DNA of 4,306 bases from positions 1 through 4,306 of IMG/VR virus record IMGVR_UViG_2690316210_000001; one strand, given 5' to 3'. The notes beneath the pieces are model-generated. The model was not told the DNA's origin. It was given only the letters and a program-made list of their open reading frames with translations, and searched no databases. Below, piece by piece: positions 1-4,306 of the stretch. The position numbers and the translations under genes are program-made. Source of the stretch: a virus (Duplodnaviria > Heunggongvirae > Uroviricota > Caudoviricetes). Positions within the stretch are counted from its first letter, which is position 1. Each line of letters begins with the position of its first letter.

Positions 1-38
1 TAAGTGATACTGGTTGTCTGGAGATTCAGGGGGCCAGT

Positions 39-2531
39 CTAATTAGCGCCAGCTTGAGCAATAGCATCAGCGATAGTTTCATCTAATCGGTCTTGTAAAC
101 CAATCAGGTCTTCCAGTGCTTCTTTGTCCTGATCTTCCCAGCTAATGCTAGACTTCATAGACAAGAAATAAGGTTCAGACCAGACAGCATCATCCATACC
201 GAAAATATCGTAGTGAGCACCACGGATATAATAATCACCATCAGCCAAATCAAAGGAAGTATGGCTAACGCTATTCGTGCTTACCGCCCTTGCATCGGAG
301 AAAGTGTTATCGGTTGCATACTGGATTATTGACCCTGCATAATCATGTTCTACGTCATCTGCCCAGCTAACAAACACACTATTAAAGCCACCACGCGCAC
401 TAAAACCTTCCATTGGCTTATGTTGTGGGTTAATAGCCACTAAACGCGCTGGGGCGCTCTCTGAGTTGTTATATCCCTTAACGGATACTTCTACCGTCAG
501 TTGACGCGAAAGGCCGTTAAACTGGTTCATATCAAGCGTATAAGTCCATGATTCAGGATCGCGGGTACGGTACTGAATAGACTTGCCAGCCTTGTTAGTT
601 ACTTTGATAAGATATGCTTCAAACAGATCACTAAACTTGCTAGTTTCACCGTTGATTTCAACATCTAGACCTTGCTGGTTATCCCATTCGATAATCAGAT
701 CATTGCCTTCGAAAGTACCAGGCGTGCTACCCTGATTTTTGATTCGAATAACCGGAGTCGGTAATTCATAGGTAACAGTAGGATTCTGGTTAATCAGTTC
801 TACCCAATCAGATCTCGCGATGATACCAAAAGCACAAACTCGGTAATCGTAAGAACGATCTTTTGCCAGTGCATTGACACTGAAAATTTGCTGTGAAGTC
901 TGTCCCAGCTTAATCCAGTTAGGTGATCCGCTTACACGGTAATCAATCTGGAAACCATAACGGTTAAAATCTTCAGGTGCATCCCATGTCAAAGTAACGT
1001 TTTTACCATAGATTGTTTCACCAGTTGCCTTAATTCTGAAATTAGTAGGCTTCTGTACTGTCATTGAATCCGGTAAACCGCTTGGTCGGTTATCTGGGTT
1101 AGCCGCATAGTTCAGGTCAGTATAAACCTGAGAATTATATTCTGTGGCGGTGATAGTCATCATCCCAGCAATACCAGAATCAATAGAGCGATCAATTGCA
1201 GTAATACGCCAAAGTGAATTATTCAGTTTCAATTCATCATAGGTTACGCTGATAACGTCCCAAACTTCGGCAGTGAATGCGTCAGTAGTCATGAAGCTGA
1301 TAACCTGAGTGATACGAGATTTATTTCGTTCTACACTCGCGAGTTTATCAATCTGGGCTTTAGACTTAACAAAACGATATTCGATATCCTTAGCAATAAT
1401 TCGACCATCTTGACGAATAGTAGCATCGTTTTCAGCATCAGCCGGATAACGTAGCATTTGCTCGGAATAGTCAATTGATGGTTCCTGATACATCGCGTTA
1501 ATGGTATTGAAATAACCGTTAGTGCCACCTGTTTTCAGTGATACCTTACCCATCATGATATTGTCTTCATTGAAGGTATGCTTAACAATATCAGGAGCAT
1601 CCAGTTTCAGAGTAATTCTTCCGAAGGATTCGAACATCACCCCGCCGAAAGTCTGCATAAGGCTAGTTAAGTTCTCTTTAAAGCTGGCGTTCGGATCACA
1701 TGCACCGTTTGAATGTAAATCCATCTGGCGTACTTGCTTGCGTACTTTCAGGAATGAATCAACGTTGATGTTTTCAATTGGTACACTAAGACCATATTTT
1801 TCATTTGTTAGGTAGTGGAAAATCTGGTCCACGCCGTTGGTGCTGGCTTCAATAGCATTGGTTTCAAGGTTACGAATCTTTAAGCCCATAACATCGACTG
1901 CTACCTGGCTATTTGGCTGGAGAATATCAACACCAGCAGCAAGAGATTTGTCATCACGACGTAACACAATACACATGGTTGCAATACCATTGCCTTTGTA
2001 GTTGTCGTTCCAGTCTGAGCCTAAATGACGTTTTGCCAGTGACAAAGCGGTGTTAGGATTCTTACCCGTGCGGAACTCAACTTCTAAAACTTTTCGGTAT
2101 TCTTCTTTAATGTTGCCTTTGTCCAGTACACCATCACGGATCGTCATGTTCTTACCAACAAGAACATTTTTATTATCGATAAACAGTGCTTTGTAATGGT
2201 CGATTTCACCCTCTGCAATTGCGAAGATTTGCACTAACTTATTGTTTTCTTGCTTGGAAATTGCTTTGTAAACGCAGATTGCACCCGTGCGGGTAGTACC
2301 GAAAAGAACGGGTAATACTGTCTTAGGATCGTTTGATGTTCCTAGTGTCACCGCATTATCTGGGCTTTGTACTTTCGGTGTTTTTGGTGCGCCTACAGTG
2401 GAAGCGATCAAAGTCATTGCACCAGCAGCCATACCGATAGCGACTGCGGTCATAACCGAAAATGTTGCGGCTGCCGCCATCCCCGCCGAAGCACCAGCAA
2501 TAACCGCGCCTACCAATACTTCAAATCCCAT
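39..2531 (-). CDS. Phage tail-tip hub / host-specificity protein J-like (830 aa), with N-terminal hydrophobic segment resembling tail assembly protein I and three FN3/Ig-like modules; lacks a C-terminal fibre/receptor-binding region
   Basis: Uninterrupted 831-codon frame. ATG at 2529..2531 overlaps the upstream stop as TAATG (minus strand) and is preceded by GGGGGTGA (plus 2535..2542), a one-mismatch match to the GGAGGTGA consensus. Residues ~95-260 (e.g. LVQIFAIAEGEIDHY, IFHYLTNEKYGLSVPIENINVDSF) resemble the N-terminal hub region of lambda J family proteins as I recall them. Residues ~495-790 show FN3 hallmarks (TLTWDAP, YDYRVCAFG, DYYIRGAHYD). Stop TAG at 39..41. Confidence 0.75.
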   Translation of the reverse strand: MGFEVLVGAVIAGASAGMAAAATFSVMTAVAIGMAAGAMTLIASTVGAPKTPKVQSPDNAVTLGTSNDPKTVLPVLFGTTRTGAICVYKAISKQENNKLVQIFAIAEGEIDHYKALFIDNKNVLVGKNMTIRDGVLDKGNIKEEYRKVLEVEFRTGKNPNTALSLAKRHLGSDWNDNYKGNGIATMCIVLRRDDKSLAAGVDILQPNSQVAVDVMGLKIRNLETNAIEASTNGVDQIFHYLTNEKYGLSVPIENINVDSFLKVRKQVRQMDLHSNGACDPNASFKENLTSLMQTFGGVMFESFGRITLKLDAPDIVKHTFNEDNIMMGKVSLKTGGTNGYFNTINAMYQEPSIDYSEQMLRYPADAENDATIRQDGRIIAKDIEYRFVKSKAQIDKLASVERNKSRITQVISFMTTDAFTAEVWDVISVTYDELKLNNSLWRITAIDRSIDSGIAGMMTITATEYNSQVYTDLNYAANPDNRPSGLPDSMTVQKPTNFRIKATGETIYGKNVTLTWDAPEDFNRYGFQIDYRVSGSPNWIKLGQTSQQIFSVNALAKDRSYDYRVCAFGIIARSDWVELINQNPTVTYELPTPVIRIKNQGSTPGTFEGNDLIIEWDNQQGLDVEINGETSKFSDLFEAYLIKVTNKAGKSIQYRTRDPESWTYTLDMNQFNGLSRQLTVEVSVKGYNNSESAPARLVAINPQHKPMEGFSARGGFNSVFVSWADDVEHDYAGSIIQYATDNTFSDARAVSTNSVSHTSFDLADGDYYIRGAHYDIFGMDDAVWSEPYFLSMKSSISWEDQDKEALEDLIGLQDRLDETIADAIAQAGAN
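162..1055 (-). other. Three tandem FN3/Ig-like beta-sandwich modules in the C-terminal third of the J-like protein (approx. nt 798..1055, 432..761, 162..419)
   Basis: Module 1 (aa ~493-578): VTLTWDAPEDF...YGFQIDYRV...YDYRVCAFG. Module 2 (aa ~591-700): LIIEWDNQ...YLIKV...LTVEVSVKGY. Module 3 (aa ~705-790): VFVSWADD...IIQYATD...DYYIRGAHYD. Boundaries are approximate. Confidence 0.55.
2388..2531 (-). other. Region encoding the Gly/Ala-rich hydrophobic N-terminal segment (aa 1-48) of the J-like protein; putative membrane-active or tail-lumen segment
   Basis: Translated sequence MGFEVLVGAVIAGASAGMAAAATFSVMTAVAIGMAAGAMTLIASTVGAPKTPK has one charged residue (E4) before the KTPK linker and repeated small-xxx-small spacing. 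The region is locally GC-rich from Ala/Gly codons. Confidence 0.55.
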
Positions 2532-2950
2532 TATTCACCCCCGAATCTATAAACTTGTTCATAGTCAATGTCTGAAACAGGAATGGTCATCCAGATACCA
2601 TCTTCTTCAACGAGGCCATAACCGGAATAATGAGGAACTACGGAATAATAATTACGGTTTCCTAATTTGTGGGCTGTGACCAGTAAGTCGCCGTCCTGTA
2701 AATCATCAGTGACTAATTTGAAATGTTTCTTAATTGGTTGAAGGATATTTGAATACCCGCTTAATTCTTTGCAGATTTTCAAACCTTCTTCTTTAGTTGA
2801 ATATTTTTTATAAAGAGAATTATATAGGTCAGTACCAGCGAGAATATCGATGATCTTACATGCAATTAGATTGCAATCATTCTCACCCTGAACGAACTCC
2901 TGACCTATTAAAGAATTGATGTAATCGGTGATAAGCCTAGTTTTTAGCAT
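2531..2950 (-). CDS. Putative NlpC/P60-like cysteine peptidase tail protein (139 aa), lambda K-like by position
   Basis: ATG at 2948..2950 is preceded by GGAGGT (plus 2958..2963) with a 7-nt spacer; stop TAA at 2531..2533 shares one base with the next start. Candidate catalytic residues in NlpC/P60-like order: Cys in GENDCNLIACK, then GDLLVTAHK and VVPHYSGYG. The ORF-track start at 3106 has no SD and overlaps the upstream gene by 110 nt, so the first 52 codons are probably not translated. Confidence 0.5.
   Translation of the reverse strand: MLKTRLITDYINSLIGQEFVQGENDCNLIACKIIDILAGTDLYNSLYKKYSTKEEGLKICKELSGYSNILQPIKKHFKLVTDDLQDGDLLVTAHKLGNRNYYSVVPHYSGYGLVEEDGIWMTIPVSDIDYEQVYRFGGE
2535..2542 (-). 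promoter_or_regulatory. Shine-Dalgarno-like GGGGGTGA for the J-like gene, embedded in the last codons of the peptidase gene
   Basis: Plus TCACCCCC at 2535..2542 is GGGGGTGA on the minus strand, 3 nt 5' of ATG 2529..2531 (6 nt after the G-run). Confidence 0.5.
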
Positions 2951-2957
2951 GTTGAAT

Positions 2958-2963
2958 ACCTCC
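2958..2963 (-). promoter_or_regulatory. Shine-Dalgarno GGAGGT for the peptidase gene
   Basis: Plus ACCTCC at 2958..2963 is GGAGGT on the minus strand, 7 nt 5' of ATG 2948..2950. Confidence 0.55.
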
Positions 2964-2996
2964 ATGCTGTTATTTACTAGGCTTAGGGAGAAGGGA

Positions 2997-3650
2997 TTAT
3001 TTCTTCGATGAATGCCACTTGCTTTCGCTATTCCACTTCCCGGCACGGGAGAAGAATAGATCGTTCTCGTTTCCGGCATAGGATCGGTGGATACCATCGG
3101 AGGCATGACTACGAGCGTTTTTATCTAGAACTTCCCAGATACTATTAAGCTGAAATTCTGATTCGTTTTTACACTCATCATCTTCATGTTCGATGTTAAT
3201 CCCGATGGAATCGACTACCCCACGGAAAACAGGGTAAGTGGTTTCAACTTTGCCCGTGTTGGGGTTAAGGAAAACCATCTCGATTTTCACATCTGATTTA
3301 TCGAATTGCTTGTTTCGAATGAGAGTAATGTATTCTTCGCGAACGTTAGAAACAGTTACGTTGATCCCGTTGTTGTTGATCTCCTTCTCTTCGGTATTCG
3401 ATGAGATTTGAAGAAAATCACCCGTTGCGAGATACGTAAATCCGTTATAGTCCAAATCGAAATACCCATCTGTAAGCCGTAGAACGTCCCCTGACGCTGT
3501 TATCACTTCGATAATGTGAAACATCGATCCAGTGGAGAAAAGCTGCGGTAGCGTCAATCTAGACACGTTCTGACCTGTCTGGTCGTTGTACACCTCGATG
3601 AAGTCCAGATTAGTGCATAGTTTGCTGAATGATTCCTGAATAGTTGCCAT
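2997..3650 (-). CDS. Minor tail protein (217 aa), tentatively lambda L-like by size and position
   Basis: ATG at 3648..3650 overlaps the upstream TAA (3650..3652) as TAATG and has GGAG (plus 3659..3662) 8 nt upstream. The ORF-track start at 3704 is a TTG with no SD. Only two Cys residues, so no four-Cys cluster motif is present. Family assignment rests on synteny and size only. Confidence 0.45.
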   Translation of the reverse strand: MATIQESFSKLCTNLDFIEVYNDQTGQNVSRLTLPQLFSTGSMFHIIEVITASGDVLRLTDGYFDLDYNGFTYLATGDFLQISSNTEEKEINNNGINVTVSNVREEYITLIRNKQFDKSDVKIEMVFLNPNTGKVETTYPVFRGVVDSIGINIEHEDDECKNESEFQLNSIWEVLDKNARSHASDGIHRSYAGNENDLFFSRAGKWNSESKWHSSKK

Positions 3651-4210
3651 TATACATTCTCCACTAATTCGAATTTCATCTTGCCAATCTGGGCGATCTT
3701 CCAATCGATATTTTCAGTTTTGAGAACAAATTCACCCTCTACGTTCTGATACTTGATCACCTCACCCGCTAGAACGTTCTGACGCAAGTTAGGGAAGAGT
3801 TTCATTTCACCACCTGATTTCACGTCTTCGGTGATCGTGTAGATTTTCTTGTGGTTCTCAAACTGGATGATAGTTCCTGCTTTCAGTGTTCCGGTGAAGT
3901 TGGAGATTCTCACCTTACGCCCACCGCGAGCAGTACCAGCAGCAGCCGTAACCATCTGGCGTACATCACCTGTATATTTTGAAAAGTAAGACAGCGGCAC
4001 ACTGAAAGGACGACCAAAAAGGTGACGTGCTACAAATTCTTTTACTTCGTTAATATCCTGAGCCATGAAATTAGCGGTAAATTCTGCTTCATAAAAATGA
4101 ATACCAGTAAAGCGACGCTGGAACTTACCAGAAATAGATTGCGCCTTGAAGAAAGGCTGTTTTGATTTAAGAGTAAAATCTGTGATTTTAATATTTTTGG
4201 ATTTGAACAT
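3650..4210 (-). CDS. Minor/distal tail protein (186 aa), tentatively lambda M-like by position
   Basis: Open frame ending TAA at 3650..3652. ATG at 4208..4210 (MFKSKNIKITDF...) lies just 3' of the hairpin and U-run on the minus strand, with a GGGGG run 8 nt upstream. The ORF-track start at 4246 is a GTG that places the hairpin inside the coding sequence; ATG at 4223..4225 is a third candidate. The C-terminus KMKFELVENV and the basic N-terminus weakly recall lambda M from memory. Confidence 0.45.
   Translation of the reverse strand: MFKSKNIKITDFTLKSKQPFFKAQSISGKFQRRFTGIHFYEAEFTANFMAQDINEVKEFVARHLFGRPFSVPLSYFSKYTGDVRQMVTAAAGTARGGRKVRISNFTGTLKAGTIIQFENHKKIYTITEDVKSGGEMKLFPNLRQNVLAGEVIKYQNVEGEFVLKTENIDWKIAQIGKMKFELVENV
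3659..3662 (-). promoter_or_regulatory. Shine-Dalgarno GGAG for the 217-aa minor tail protein gene
   Basis: Plus CTCC at 3659..3662 is GGAG on the minus strand, 8 nt 5' of ATG 3648..3650, within the 3' end of the upstream gene. Confidence 0.45.
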
Positions 4211-4212
4211 AG

Positions 4213-4258
4213 AAAAAGCCCCCATAGTTTTATGATTATTTATCACTATGGGGGGCTT
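4213..4258 (-). terminator. Putative intrinsic terminator / mRNA-stabilising hairpin on the minus strand
   Basis: Plus 4216..4227 AAGCCCCCATAG pairs with 4246..4258 CTATGGGGGGCTT (12-13 bp stem, one bulged G, AT-rich ~16-18 nt loop). The minus-strand RNA reads stem-GGGGGCUUUUUCUAUG, a U-run immediately 3' of the stem. The loop is larger than in typical terminators. Confidence 0.4.
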
Positions 4259-4306
4259 GGTGATGCTGCCAACTTACTGATTTAGTGTATGATGGTGTTT
4301 TTGAGG

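Follow-up and report, generated by a model that had tools for sequence, protein, structure and literature searches.

The window analyzed here (the whole stretch of viral DNA, 4,306 nt in length) carries a block of tail genes on the minus strand, in the order Dit, DUF2163 hub, DUF6950 protein and tip protein, that is bounded on either side by the end of an insertion sequence (Table 1). This arrangement of genes recurs in 5 phages and in 58 related viral loci. The open reading frame of the tail-tip protein (2531..39 on the minus strand, 830 aa) terminates within IS2, with the first three bases of that element providing its stop codon (TAG on the minus strand, window positions 41..39), and homology to an intact prophage ends at position 42. 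In intact relatives the tip protein is 1258 aa long (positions 15723-19499 in prophage L001); the window copy is therefore truncated, without its last ~428 residues, and the remaining tail genes are missing. At the opposite end, IS1 stands in front of the Dit gene, where intact prophages have the tape-measure gene. The window copy is a non-functional prophage remnant, cut by IS1 and IS2; an example of an intact prophage is at NZ_CP178634, 2895981-2903916. Megablast with the window matched nothing in a plasmid collection and, in a phage collection, matched through the IS ends alone; an exact junction-pattern search and a protein scan of genome contigs were both negative. The tape-measure protein of the intact prophage has a hydrophobic segment of its own, with a Kyte-Doolittle (KD) value of 1.94 at aa ~56 and an uncharged run of 24 residues.

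Table 1. Features of the 4,306-nt window, with module parts given in residues (aa) of the tail-tip protein
Feature	Position	Strand	Basis
IS2 terminal inverted repeat	1..41	.	100% match to IS2 end
J-like baseplate hub body (hub domains II-IV, Phage-tail_3) and FN3 domains, aa 107-830	42..2213	-	Pfam, Foldseek
Beta-strand part, aa 67-106, with VLPVLFGTTRTG at aa 72-83	2214..2333	-	Profile matches to pb3 and gpI
aa 49-66 (PKTPKVQSPDNAVTLGTS)	2334..2387	-	Motif aligned to lambda gpI plug region (PKARTPRIQTTDNGKQNTYFSS; plug = 159-175)
Gly/Ala-rich hydrophobic segment, aa 1-48 (MGFEVLVGAVIAGASAGMAAAATFSVMTAVAIGMAAGAMTLIASTVGA)	2388..2531	-	Composition, uncharged run, two KD maxima
DUF6950 protein, 139 aa	2531..2950	-	Pfam DUF6950, 3.3e-12; position of lambda K / RcGTA g14
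Hub protein, 217 aa, DUF2163 / phiJL001 Gp84 N-terminal attachment-domain family	2997..3650	-	PF09931, 8.7e-6; phrog_2048, 1.3e-27
Distal tail protein (Dit), 186 aa	3650..4210	-	phrog_1302 ‘distal tail protein’, 2.6e-16; weak pb9 B-domain match
IS1 terminal inverted repeat	4259..4306	.	100% match to IS1 end

The 217-residue hub, which RefSeq names ‘DUF2163’ or ‘baseplate hub’ in relatives, is the equivalent of lambda gpL and RcGTA g13, and contains only 2 Cys. The DUF6950 protein displays conserved G-x-x-D-C and G-D motifs in its alignment and a weak hhalign match to the NlpC/P60 region of lambda gpK (34.8%, E=4e-4), and a sequence search of the PDB gave nothing significant for it. Within the body of the tip protein, Pfam reports weak matches to both Phage-tail_3 and fn3. 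An AF2 model of the protein (pLDDT 70-89 for most of aa 72-470) was matched by Foldseek to T5 pb3 (1.8e-23, TMq 0.68), lambda gpJ (1.9e-15), RcGTA g15 (6tba_8A, 1e-14) and the R4C megatron (8gtc_M, 4e-5).

A first-pass annotation of this DNA had described the start of the tip protein as a Gly/Ala-rich hydrophobic segment of ~48 residues, and both its coordinates, which are exact, and the composition of the segment bear this out. Residues 1-48 comprise 15 Ala, 7 Gly, 6 Val and 5 Met, with E4 as the sole charge; glycine and alanine together make up 46% of the segment, versus 14% of the remaining protein. The N-terminus contains a run of 44 residues that is free of D, E, K, R, H, N, Q and P, whereas the longest such run in 20,000 shuffles of the whole tip protein averaged 13 and reached at most 33. 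KD means over 19 residues range from 1.3 to 1.9 across aa 1-31, values that are compatible with a predicted insertion into a membrane, as compared to a maximum of 1.04 beyond the first 60 aa. By a crude Hessa-scale sum (+0.9 to +1.8 kcal/mol), insertion would be marginal. The segment probably forms two marginally hydrophobic helices, at about aa 3-23 and 24-46. The AF2 monomer, computed from a shallow input alignment (homologue searches gave just 7 and 11 relatives), has no confident structure over aa 1-71 (pLDDT about 22), with pLDDT of 72-83 from aa 72 and strands at aa 79-118. The AxxxA/GxxxG-like spacing that had also been pointed out is present at the level expected from composition (14 occurrences; shuffling the segment gives 11.7+-1.8, p=0.15). 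All 58 of 58 IMG/VR relatives (46-100% identity) open with an uncharged run of 41-49 residues.

The same annotation had proposed that this protein represents a fusion of the lambda tail proteins I and J. Lambda gpI contains predicted transmembrane helices (H1 and H2) and a plug at residues 159-175 (PMC11101478), and its cryo-EM model begins at residue 101. A search of the PDB with the single sequence returned gpI at E=0.03, while a profile of aa 1-124 built from 10 relatives matched it at E=2.8e-5 (aa 6-105 against gpI 119-221), and a 30-sequence profile gave E values of 2.2e-5 to 3.2e-5, the family profiles as a whole covering gpI ~112-221. Alignments by hhalign against 15 gpI homologues reached probabilities of 93.9% and 95.9%. 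When the polar part was aligned alone (aa 46-105 against gpI 156-222), a probability of 90.6% and a score of 36.5 were obtained, about 11 standard deviations above column-permuted controls (10.3+-2.3), whereas the hydrophobic parts alone gave 1.4%, which is not significant. The PHROG family of gpI, phrog_32, was matched in collinear fashion, with aa 3-96 corresponding to positions 100-200 of its 203-position profile (E=3e-3), and phrog_31, ‘central tail fiber J’, was matched both by the N-terminus of the window protein and by lambda gpI.

These comparisons establish, at the level of sequence, that aa ~24-106 are homologous to gpI 137-222, and the idea of an I-J relationship, by fusion or by fission, has gained support from the profiles, hhalign and phrog_32 alike. 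The main source of the signal is the polar residues that follow the hydrophobic stretch, and not that stretch. For the latter, the uncharged runs are of similar length (44 residues, versus 48 in gpI beginning at residue 105), the KD maxima are 1.88 and 1.78, and aa 1-48 occupy the position equivalent to that of H1/H2 (gpI residues ~102-156); because hhalign finds just 1.4%, the equivalence of the two hydrophobic parts rests on position, length and composition. The earlier statement that a comparable stretch ends gpI was roughly right: in gpI, H1/H2 and the plug are in the C-terminal half of the protein, but not at its end. A scan of aa 1-120 against Pfam, which had been suggested as a check, did not return Lambda_tail_I (PF06805); this absence is uninformative because PF06805 spans just gpI 14-97. 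A narrow HMM of 15 close lambda-type gpI C-termini had zero matches among the ORFs of the 58 loci, the model being too narrow for this result to count in either direction. An exhaustive profile search at E<=1e-3 recovered 561 cluster representatives; among the best 150 of these, all 150 bear the module at the protein N-terminus, and 64 of the 150 have N-termini that are not hydrophobic but amphipathic or acidic. An extra leader, resembling a Sec signal peptide, stands ahead of a hydrophobic module in a few distant relatives.

Beyond the segment, the four residues KTPK, which had been taken for a linker, instead fall within TPKVQSPDN, a conserved stretch whose counterpart in the alignment is the beginning of the gpI plug (TPRIQTTDN). 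In the strand part that follows, VLPVLFGTTRTG aligns with VLPVLYGEMRVG of gpI (188-199) and the alignment continues to the gpI C-terminus; the same strands also align with T5 pb3 263-312, and lead into the J-type motif LVQIFAIAEGEI. Residues 1-48 are likely to be the front of a ~105-residue module that matches the virion-resident part of gpI (Iyer's ‘TAPI-C’). In its probable layout, this module would consist of the two marginally hydrophobic helices, followed by a short plug motif (TPKVQSPDN...) and, incorporated into the hub, beta-strands (VLPVLFGTTRTG...).

What the tip protein contains of gpI, as judged from sequence matches, is only the half that is resolved in the virion (from residue ~101). 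The ubiquitin-like domain is absent: PF06805 has no match among the proteins of the window, an HMM of the domain had 0 matches in 1068 ORFs of the 58 related viral loci, and the 5 phages likewise have no ubiquitin-like ORF. A separate I gene is found neither here, nor in the 5 phages, nor in the 58 loci; as had been noted at the outset, there is none between the peptidase-like and J-like genes, and the DUF6950 stop overlaps the start of the tip protein. By Pfam, lambda gpK combines a Prok-JAB with an NLPC_P60 domain, and the adjacent DUF6950 protein has no JAB domain.

The reading that we consider likely is that the module corresponds to the virion half of gpI and is placed at the N-terminus of a J-like hub in the layout of the RcGTA/R4C ‘megatron’, and that it acts both as a plug and in membrane insertion. 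Its location in the tail lumen, its assembly into a trimeric plug and its insertion into a membrane are all inferred from the solved tips of lambda, T5, RcGTA and R4C. In the virion, three copies of the module would lie within the tip cone, where they would shut the channel of the tail and hold up the tape-measure protein at its C-terminus. Upon receptor binding, the hub domains would swing outward and the plug would fall apart; the hydrophobic helices, freed toward the outer membrane, would then insert, and might either anchor the open tube or line a first pore before the tape-measure protein and the DNA exit. We know of no demonstrated case of alpha-helical insertion into an outer membrane among the lambda, T5, RcGTA and R4C tips.

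Several other readings of the segment were weighed against this one. The presence of Met codons inside it, at aa 18, 27, 34 and 39, leaves room for the view that the start has been mis-called and the segment is untranslated, which we regard as hardly believable: the assigned start is the first in the ORF, shares one base with the DUF6950 stop in a TAATG overlap that has the geometry of translational coupling, is preceded six bases upstream by a Shine-Dalgarno-like GGGGGTGA, and is identical to that in the RefSeq annotation. Furthermore, codons 1-48 differ from those of L001 by one synonymous and zero non-synonymous changes (in the whole tip ORF, 83 codon differences are synonymous and 15 non-synonymous), and as a protein sequence the segment is retained in relatives with an overall identity as low as 46%. 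The start codon of the tip protein is credible. A translated, N-terminal and hydrophobic segment might also be a secretion signal or an inner-membrane anchor, either cleaved or needed solely for assembly in the producing cell, and the Sec-like leaders of a few distant relatives might be cited in favor of such a role; this is nevertheless very improbable, as there is no basic n-region (E4 being the only charge), no lipobox and no Cys, the hydrophobic core extends over 44 residues versus 7-15, the Gly/Ala segment of the leader-bearing relatives lies beyond the site of putative cleavage, and virions are seen to contain the homologous parts of both gpI and the megatrons. Finally, a greasy stopper could have arisen independently of gene I, its likeness to gpI being convergent. 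The hydrophobic segments indeed have no significant similarity, there is no common Pfam family, and the reciprocal search with the narrow HMM was empty; but the signal resides in 60 polar residues in which TP[KR].Q..DN and VLPV[LV][FY]G..R.G occur in the same order and spacing, T5 pb3 shares the strand motif immediately after its own plug, and PHROG clustering already groups gpI-like with J-like N-termini. Convergence is accordingly judged improbable.

A more serious rival accepts the homology, and holds that the module is an ‘iris’ and nothing else: a plug that keeps the channel shut and serves as a dock for the tape-measure protein, with helices that are buried or expelled while the tape-measure protein makes the membrane channel. 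The closed-state role is the only one that is actually seen in structures, in T5 it is the hydrophobic stretch of the tape-measure protein that is credited with making the channel, the tape-measure protein of the intact prophage likewise has such a segment, and both the marginal Hessa-scale sum and the many relatives with non-hydrophobic N-termini (64 of the best 150) are in keeping with a plug alone. Against it, H1 and H2 of lambda, for which the transmembrane prediction is strong, move out of the tip and toward the membrane in the open state, and an uncharged run maintained in every close and mid-distance relative despite sequence drift would be needless for a simple plug. On balance we consider an exclusively iris-like role rather unlikely, and favor the combined plug and membrane-insertion module.

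The analysis suggests what the N-terminus may do in an uncharacterized family of tail-tip proteins encoded by prophages of E. coli, Salmonella and Citrobacter, which are annotated as ‘phage tail tip protein’, with neighbors called DUF2163, DUF6950 or hypothetical. It also links at the sequence level three stoppers that have been studied structurally: the C-terminal half of gpI, the strand following the plug of T5 pb3, and the N-terminus of megatron-type hubs. Because the Pfam Lambda_tail_I model is restricted to the ubiquitin-like domain, the half of gpI that resides in the virion is missed when it is fused to J-like proteins. No new mechanism is revealed, and the window copy is inactive.

A more speculative view, which we think doubtful, is that the hydrophobic module may work only when its N-terminus is free, with lineages differing in how such an end is provided. 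It may simply be Met1 of the hub protein (as in the present family, RcGTA and R4C); in lambda, the JAB domain of K may free it from a ubiquitin-like carrier after AGAKxGG; and in some metagenomic relatives a signal-peptide-like leader may stand in front of it. Lambda gene I would then have arisen by fission from a megatron-type hub that had captured a ubiquitin-like/JAB processing pair.

Compared to lambda gpI (8IYK, 8XCG, 9E7M), the module has a similar ~45-55-residue Gly/Ala-rich uncharged stretch, the motif P-K-x-T-P-[KR]-[VI]-Q-x-x-D-N and the VLPV[LV][FY]G-x-x-R-x-G strands, and its coding sequence lies likewise directly 5' of the J hub body and 3' of a K-like gene. In contrast, gpI is a separate protein of 223 aa, with a ubiquitin-like N-terminus (PF06805, 14-97) and a conserved AGAKxGG junction, and its gpK neighbor has the JAB domain that is lacking from the neighbor here, where the module begins at Met1 of the hub protein. 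In lambda, gpI 176-223 contributes strands to the insertion of hub domain II, the gpI tripod sits under gpH (PMC10721106), and the plug and H1/H2 are gone from the open-state tip (PMC11101478). A mass-spectrometry table of the lambda virion includes one gpI peptide (9.9% coverage); because the position of this peptide is not given, the table is silent on retention of the ubiquitin-like domain.

T5 pb3 (7ZHJ) is the best structural match of the predicted model, and shares the strand motif (262-312; profile E=5.8e-6 and 5.5e-8), which in pb3 directly follows the plug. It differs in carrying four hub domains in one chain, and in a plug, inserting into the membrane, that refolds to a charged beta-hairpin with a short LFGL tip and no long hydrophobic helices, the membrane channel being assigned to the tape-measure protein. 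The authors of the T5 study found that the ‘alpha1’ helix of RcGTA superposes on C-terminal helices of the tape-measure protein, and doubted the generality of the mechanism.

The joining of I-type and J-type parts is itself already described, both in the TAPI-TAPJ fusions of prophages (PMC1779556) and in the N-terminal ‘iris/penetration domain’ of the RcGTA and R4C megatrons (residues 1-46 and 1-45; PMC7296036, PMC10276861). The former resemble the present protein in combining both parts on one polypeptide, but their TAPI is described as including the ubiquitin-like domain, whereas only the C-terminal module is found here. With RcGTA g15 and the R4C megatron (6TEH/6TBA, 8GTC) the correspondence extends to the operon layout (Dit, a DUF2163-type hub, a small protein of ~140-150 aa and a large tip protein), to the hub fold by Foldseek, and to the hydrophobic N-terminus of ~46 residues on the tip protein, with agreement in position, length and hydrophobicity. 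Differences are that the module and g15 lack significant similarity when their sequences are compared directly (E=0.68), that the hub is without the four-Cys iron-sulfur site of g13 and gpL, that the tip protein has FN3 domains, as do lambda and T5, and that an enterobacterium is the host. With these differences, the tip protein is an ordinary member of the known megatron-type design.

All genes judged real in the window lie on the minus strand, between the ends of two insertion sequences.

Genes and insertion-sequence ends in the window
Feature	Position	Strand	Remarks
IS1 inverted repeat	4259-4306		window end
Distal tail protein (Dit)	4210..3650	-	186 aa; phrog_1302, 2.6e-16
Hub protein, DUF2163 / phiJL001-Gp84 N-terminal attachment-domain family	3650..2997	-	217 aa; Pfam 8.7e-6, phrog_2048 1.3e-27
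DUF6950 protein	2950..2531	-	139 aa; Pfam 3.3e-12
Tail-tip protein	2531..39	-	830 aa; Phage-tail_3 and fn3 matches, weak
IS2 inverted repeat	1-41		window end

One-base overlaps (TAATG) join two gene pairs, Dit/hub and DUF6950/tip. Because the insertion sequences bracket the homologous part (42..4258, the exact extent of homology to intact prophages), and because IS2 contributes, as its first triplet, the stop codon of the tip gene (TAG, 41..39), the window is a dead prophage fragment of four stranded genes, inactive in its source genome. Its reading frames keep the mark of past purifying selection, with 83 synonymous and 15 non-synonymous codon differences from the intact reference prophage (L001). 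The intact cluster is present in 56 complete E. coli chromosomes (at 90-97% identity in 49 of the 56); in NZ_CP178634, where the prophage is located in ycdX, the Dit gene is preceded by a tape-measure gene and the tip protein comprises 1258 aa. A GC-rich palindrome (AAAAAGCCCCCATAGT...ACTATGGGGGGCTT, 4214-4258) separates the IS1 end from the Dit start, and in the intact prophage (L001, approximately 13995-14040) its neighbours are the tape-measure stop on one side and the Dit start on the other. It resembles a terminator or RNA stem within the tail operon.

The first-pass annotation described a Gly/Ala-rich hydrophobic start of the tip protein, and composition, hydropathy and conservation all bear this out. 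Residues 1-48 (MGFEVLVGAVIAGASAGMAAAATFSVMTAVAIGMAAGAMTLIASTVGA, encoded by 2531..2388) are 46% Gly plus Ala, versus 14% over the remaining protein, and E4 is their sole charge. A run of 44 residues is free of D/E/K/R/H/N/Q/P (20,000 whole-protein shuffles averaged 13 and never exceeded 33), and Kyte-Doolittle 19-residue means reach 1.3-1.9, with two maxima (near aa 5 and aa 24), while no such mean exceeds 1.04 past residue 60. An initial uncharged run of 41-49 residues is found in 58/58 related IMG/VR loci (46-100% identity). The AxxxA/GxxxG-like spacing also claimed for the segment did not hold, since small-xxx-small pairs are not enriched beyond composition (p=0.15). Two antisense ORFs (130 and 61 aa; 2287-2679, plus strand) lie opposite the segment; they were rejected as genes, being a side effect of the local GC-rich Ala/Gly codons (GC 55%, versus 42% for the window).

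The hydrophobic stretch that the same annotation described for the lambda tail protein gpI agrees with the literature, in which gpI has a pair of predicted transmembrane helices (H1/H2) as well as a plug (159-175) and beta-strands joining the gpJ sheets; its resolved part begins at residue 101 in the closed tip but not before 167 in the open one (PMC11101478, PMC10721106). A Pfam comparison, proposed there as a check of an I-J fusion, cannot decide the question, since the PF06805 model is confined to the ubiquitin-like domain (gpI 14-97). A phmmer search of aa 1-130 against PDB sequences returned gpI chains as the sole matches (E=0.03), pairing PKTPKVQSPDN with KARTPRIQTTDN and VLPVLFGTTRTG with VLPVLYGEMRVG. 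A 10-sequence family profile matched gpI at E=2.8e-5 (aa 6-105 against gpI 119-221) and T5 pb3 263-312 at 5.8e-6; a 30-sequence profile matched pb3 at 5.5e-8, gpI chains at 2.2e-5 to 3.2e-5 and another 'tail assembly protein', 25vf_9, at 1.4e-3. Comparison with 15 gpI homologues by hhalign gave 93.9% (E=1.6e-7) and 95.9% (E=5e-9). Among PHROGs, the gpI family phrog_32 was matched collinearly (aa 3-96 against profile positions 100-200 of 203, E=3e-3), and the N-terminal part of phrog_31, 'central tail fiber J', was matched by both the tip-protein N-terminus and lambda gpI. Beyond residue ~98 of the tip protein comes LVQIFAIAEGEI, the counterpart of lambda gpJ LLSVIDAISEGPIEG. These sequence comparisons support the I-J reading, restricted to the virion half of gpI; the event behind it may have been a fusion or a fission.

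A signal peptide is excluded as an explanation of this N-terminus, since it lacks a basic n-region and any Cys and has a core of 44 residues. A mis-called start is excluded too, by conservation and by the geometry of coupling with the stop just upstream; the assigned start is preceded by no other in the ORF and accompanied by a Shine-Dalgarno-like GGGGGTGA. The hydrophobic parts taken alone show no significant similarity to each other (hhalign 1.4%), and their equivalence rests on position, length (44 versus 48 uncharged residues) and hydropathy. Convergence with gpI is unlikely, because the signal sits in ordered polar motifs. The polar part alone (aa 46-105 against gpI 156-222) gives 90.6% with a score of 36.5, above 200 column-permuted controls (10.3+-2.3, maximum 18.6), so that the gpI signal is independent of the low-complexity stretch.

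The absence of a separate I gene was confirmed in the window, in five phages (DCP80, henriette 12B8, PSTCR4, Lebethron and HTVC112P) and in 58 viral loci, all of which also lack a ubiquitin-like domain and a JAB domain in the K-position protein; the ubiquitin-like HMM had 0 matches among 1068 ORFs of the 58 loci. In the DUF6950 proteins of four distant phages or prophages, G..DC (GxxDC) and GD motifs are invariant and align weakly (hhalign 34.8%) with the catalytic-Cys region of the gpK NlpC/P60 domain. This relation is no more than suggestive, and the DUF6950 protein may be a papain-like peptidase without a JAB domain. In lambda, the JAB domain of K is predicted to cut gpI behind the final Gly of its ubiquitin-like domain (Iyer et al. 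2006). Among gpI homologues, AGAKxGG is conserved immediately before the hydrophobic stretch (residues 95-102 of lambda gene I, L002), and one lambda cryo-EM gpI model begins at residue 101; both fit that prediction. The published lambda virion mass-spectrometry table leaves the position of the observed gpI peptide unstated. Several E. coli records hold 335-389-aa proteins joining NlpC/P60 (K) and Lambda_tail_I (P0016, P0020, P0021, P0024, P0026 and others), and in lambda the K and I genes share about 100 nt; such proteins could come from frameshifting or from K-I fusion, or be artefacts of annotation.

An exhaustive profile search with the N-terminal module (about 105 residues) across 1.84 billion cluster representatives yielded 561 proteins at E<=1e-3. 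Among the best 150 the module is N-terminal in all 150, 71 proteins are at least 600 aa long, and 86 have 18 or more consecutive uncharged residues ahead of the VYG motif, the remainder being amphipathic or acidic. By this distribution, the window protein is a typical member of a large design already described. In eight distant relatives (P0159, P0166, P0179, P0198, P0206, P0209, P0214, P0227) a Sec-signal-like leader of ~20-25 residues (with a basic start and a hydrophobic core, and ending AxA-like as in AYA|G or LFA|M) stands immediately before the Gly/Ala-rich module, an unexpected feature given that such a protein should assemble in the cytoplasm. In some close relatives (L012 3765-4535, and also L019, L021, L035 and L040) the hub and DUF6950 genes are separated by an inserted ORF of 256-257 aa, which carries three NUMOD3 motifs (Pfam 1.4e-20) of the kind usual in homing endonucleases. 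Among phage-database sequences, the relative nearest to the tip protein (42% identity; L003, Escherichia phage DCP80, PQ671644.1 18679-22437) belongs to a 141-kb record classified as Straboviridae/Tevenvirinae, where the tip gene adjoins the gene for endonuclease VII. The presence of a tip gene of the siphovirus type within a T4-like record points to a chimera or a misclassification.

If the solved tips of lambda, T5, RcGTA and R4C are a guide, three copies of aa 49-66 would close the tip lumen beneath the tape-measure C-terminus, aa 67-106 would form strands of the hub domain-II insertion, and aa 1-48 would be stored within the lumen as two helices. Receptor-triggered rotation of the hub domains might then release the plug, allowing the helices to move to the outer membrane and insert. 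A crude Hessa-scale sum for the segment is marginal, at +0.9 to +1.8 kcal/mol, and the inserted state is shown by no structure. A plug-only role for the module is a live variant; the tape-measure protein of the intact prophage also contains a hydrophobic segment, a possible former of the channel, and the T5 authors question the generality of the 'megatron' mechanism.

An AF2 model of the tip protein (pLDDT 70-89 over most of aa 72-470, ~22 for aa 1-71) retrieved T5 pb3 by Foldseek (E=1.8e-23, TMq 0.68), as well as lambda gpJ (1.9e-15), RcGTA g15 (1e-14), the R4C megatron (4e-5), JBD30, Chi and T1. Sequence similarity of the module to RcGTA g15 is not significant (30-sequence profile, E=0.68). 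Since the window hub has only two Cys, it can hold no four-Cys iron-sulfur cluster, unlike lambda gpL, RcGTA g13 and the R4C hub. The RcGTA and R4C tips share the gene order and DUF2163-type hub of the window, and their 'megatron' protein starts with an 'iris/penetration domain' (residues 1-46 and 1-45), which shuts the channel and is a proposed outer-membrane pore former (PMC7296036, PMC10276861). TAPI-TAPJ fusions were noted by Iyer et al. in 2006, and Xiao et al. equated RcGTA genes 13-14-15 with lambda L-K-I-J, and gpL, gpI and the gpJ N-terminus with pb3, the T5 protein in which gpI-type and J-type motifs are contiguous, as they are in the tip protein described here.
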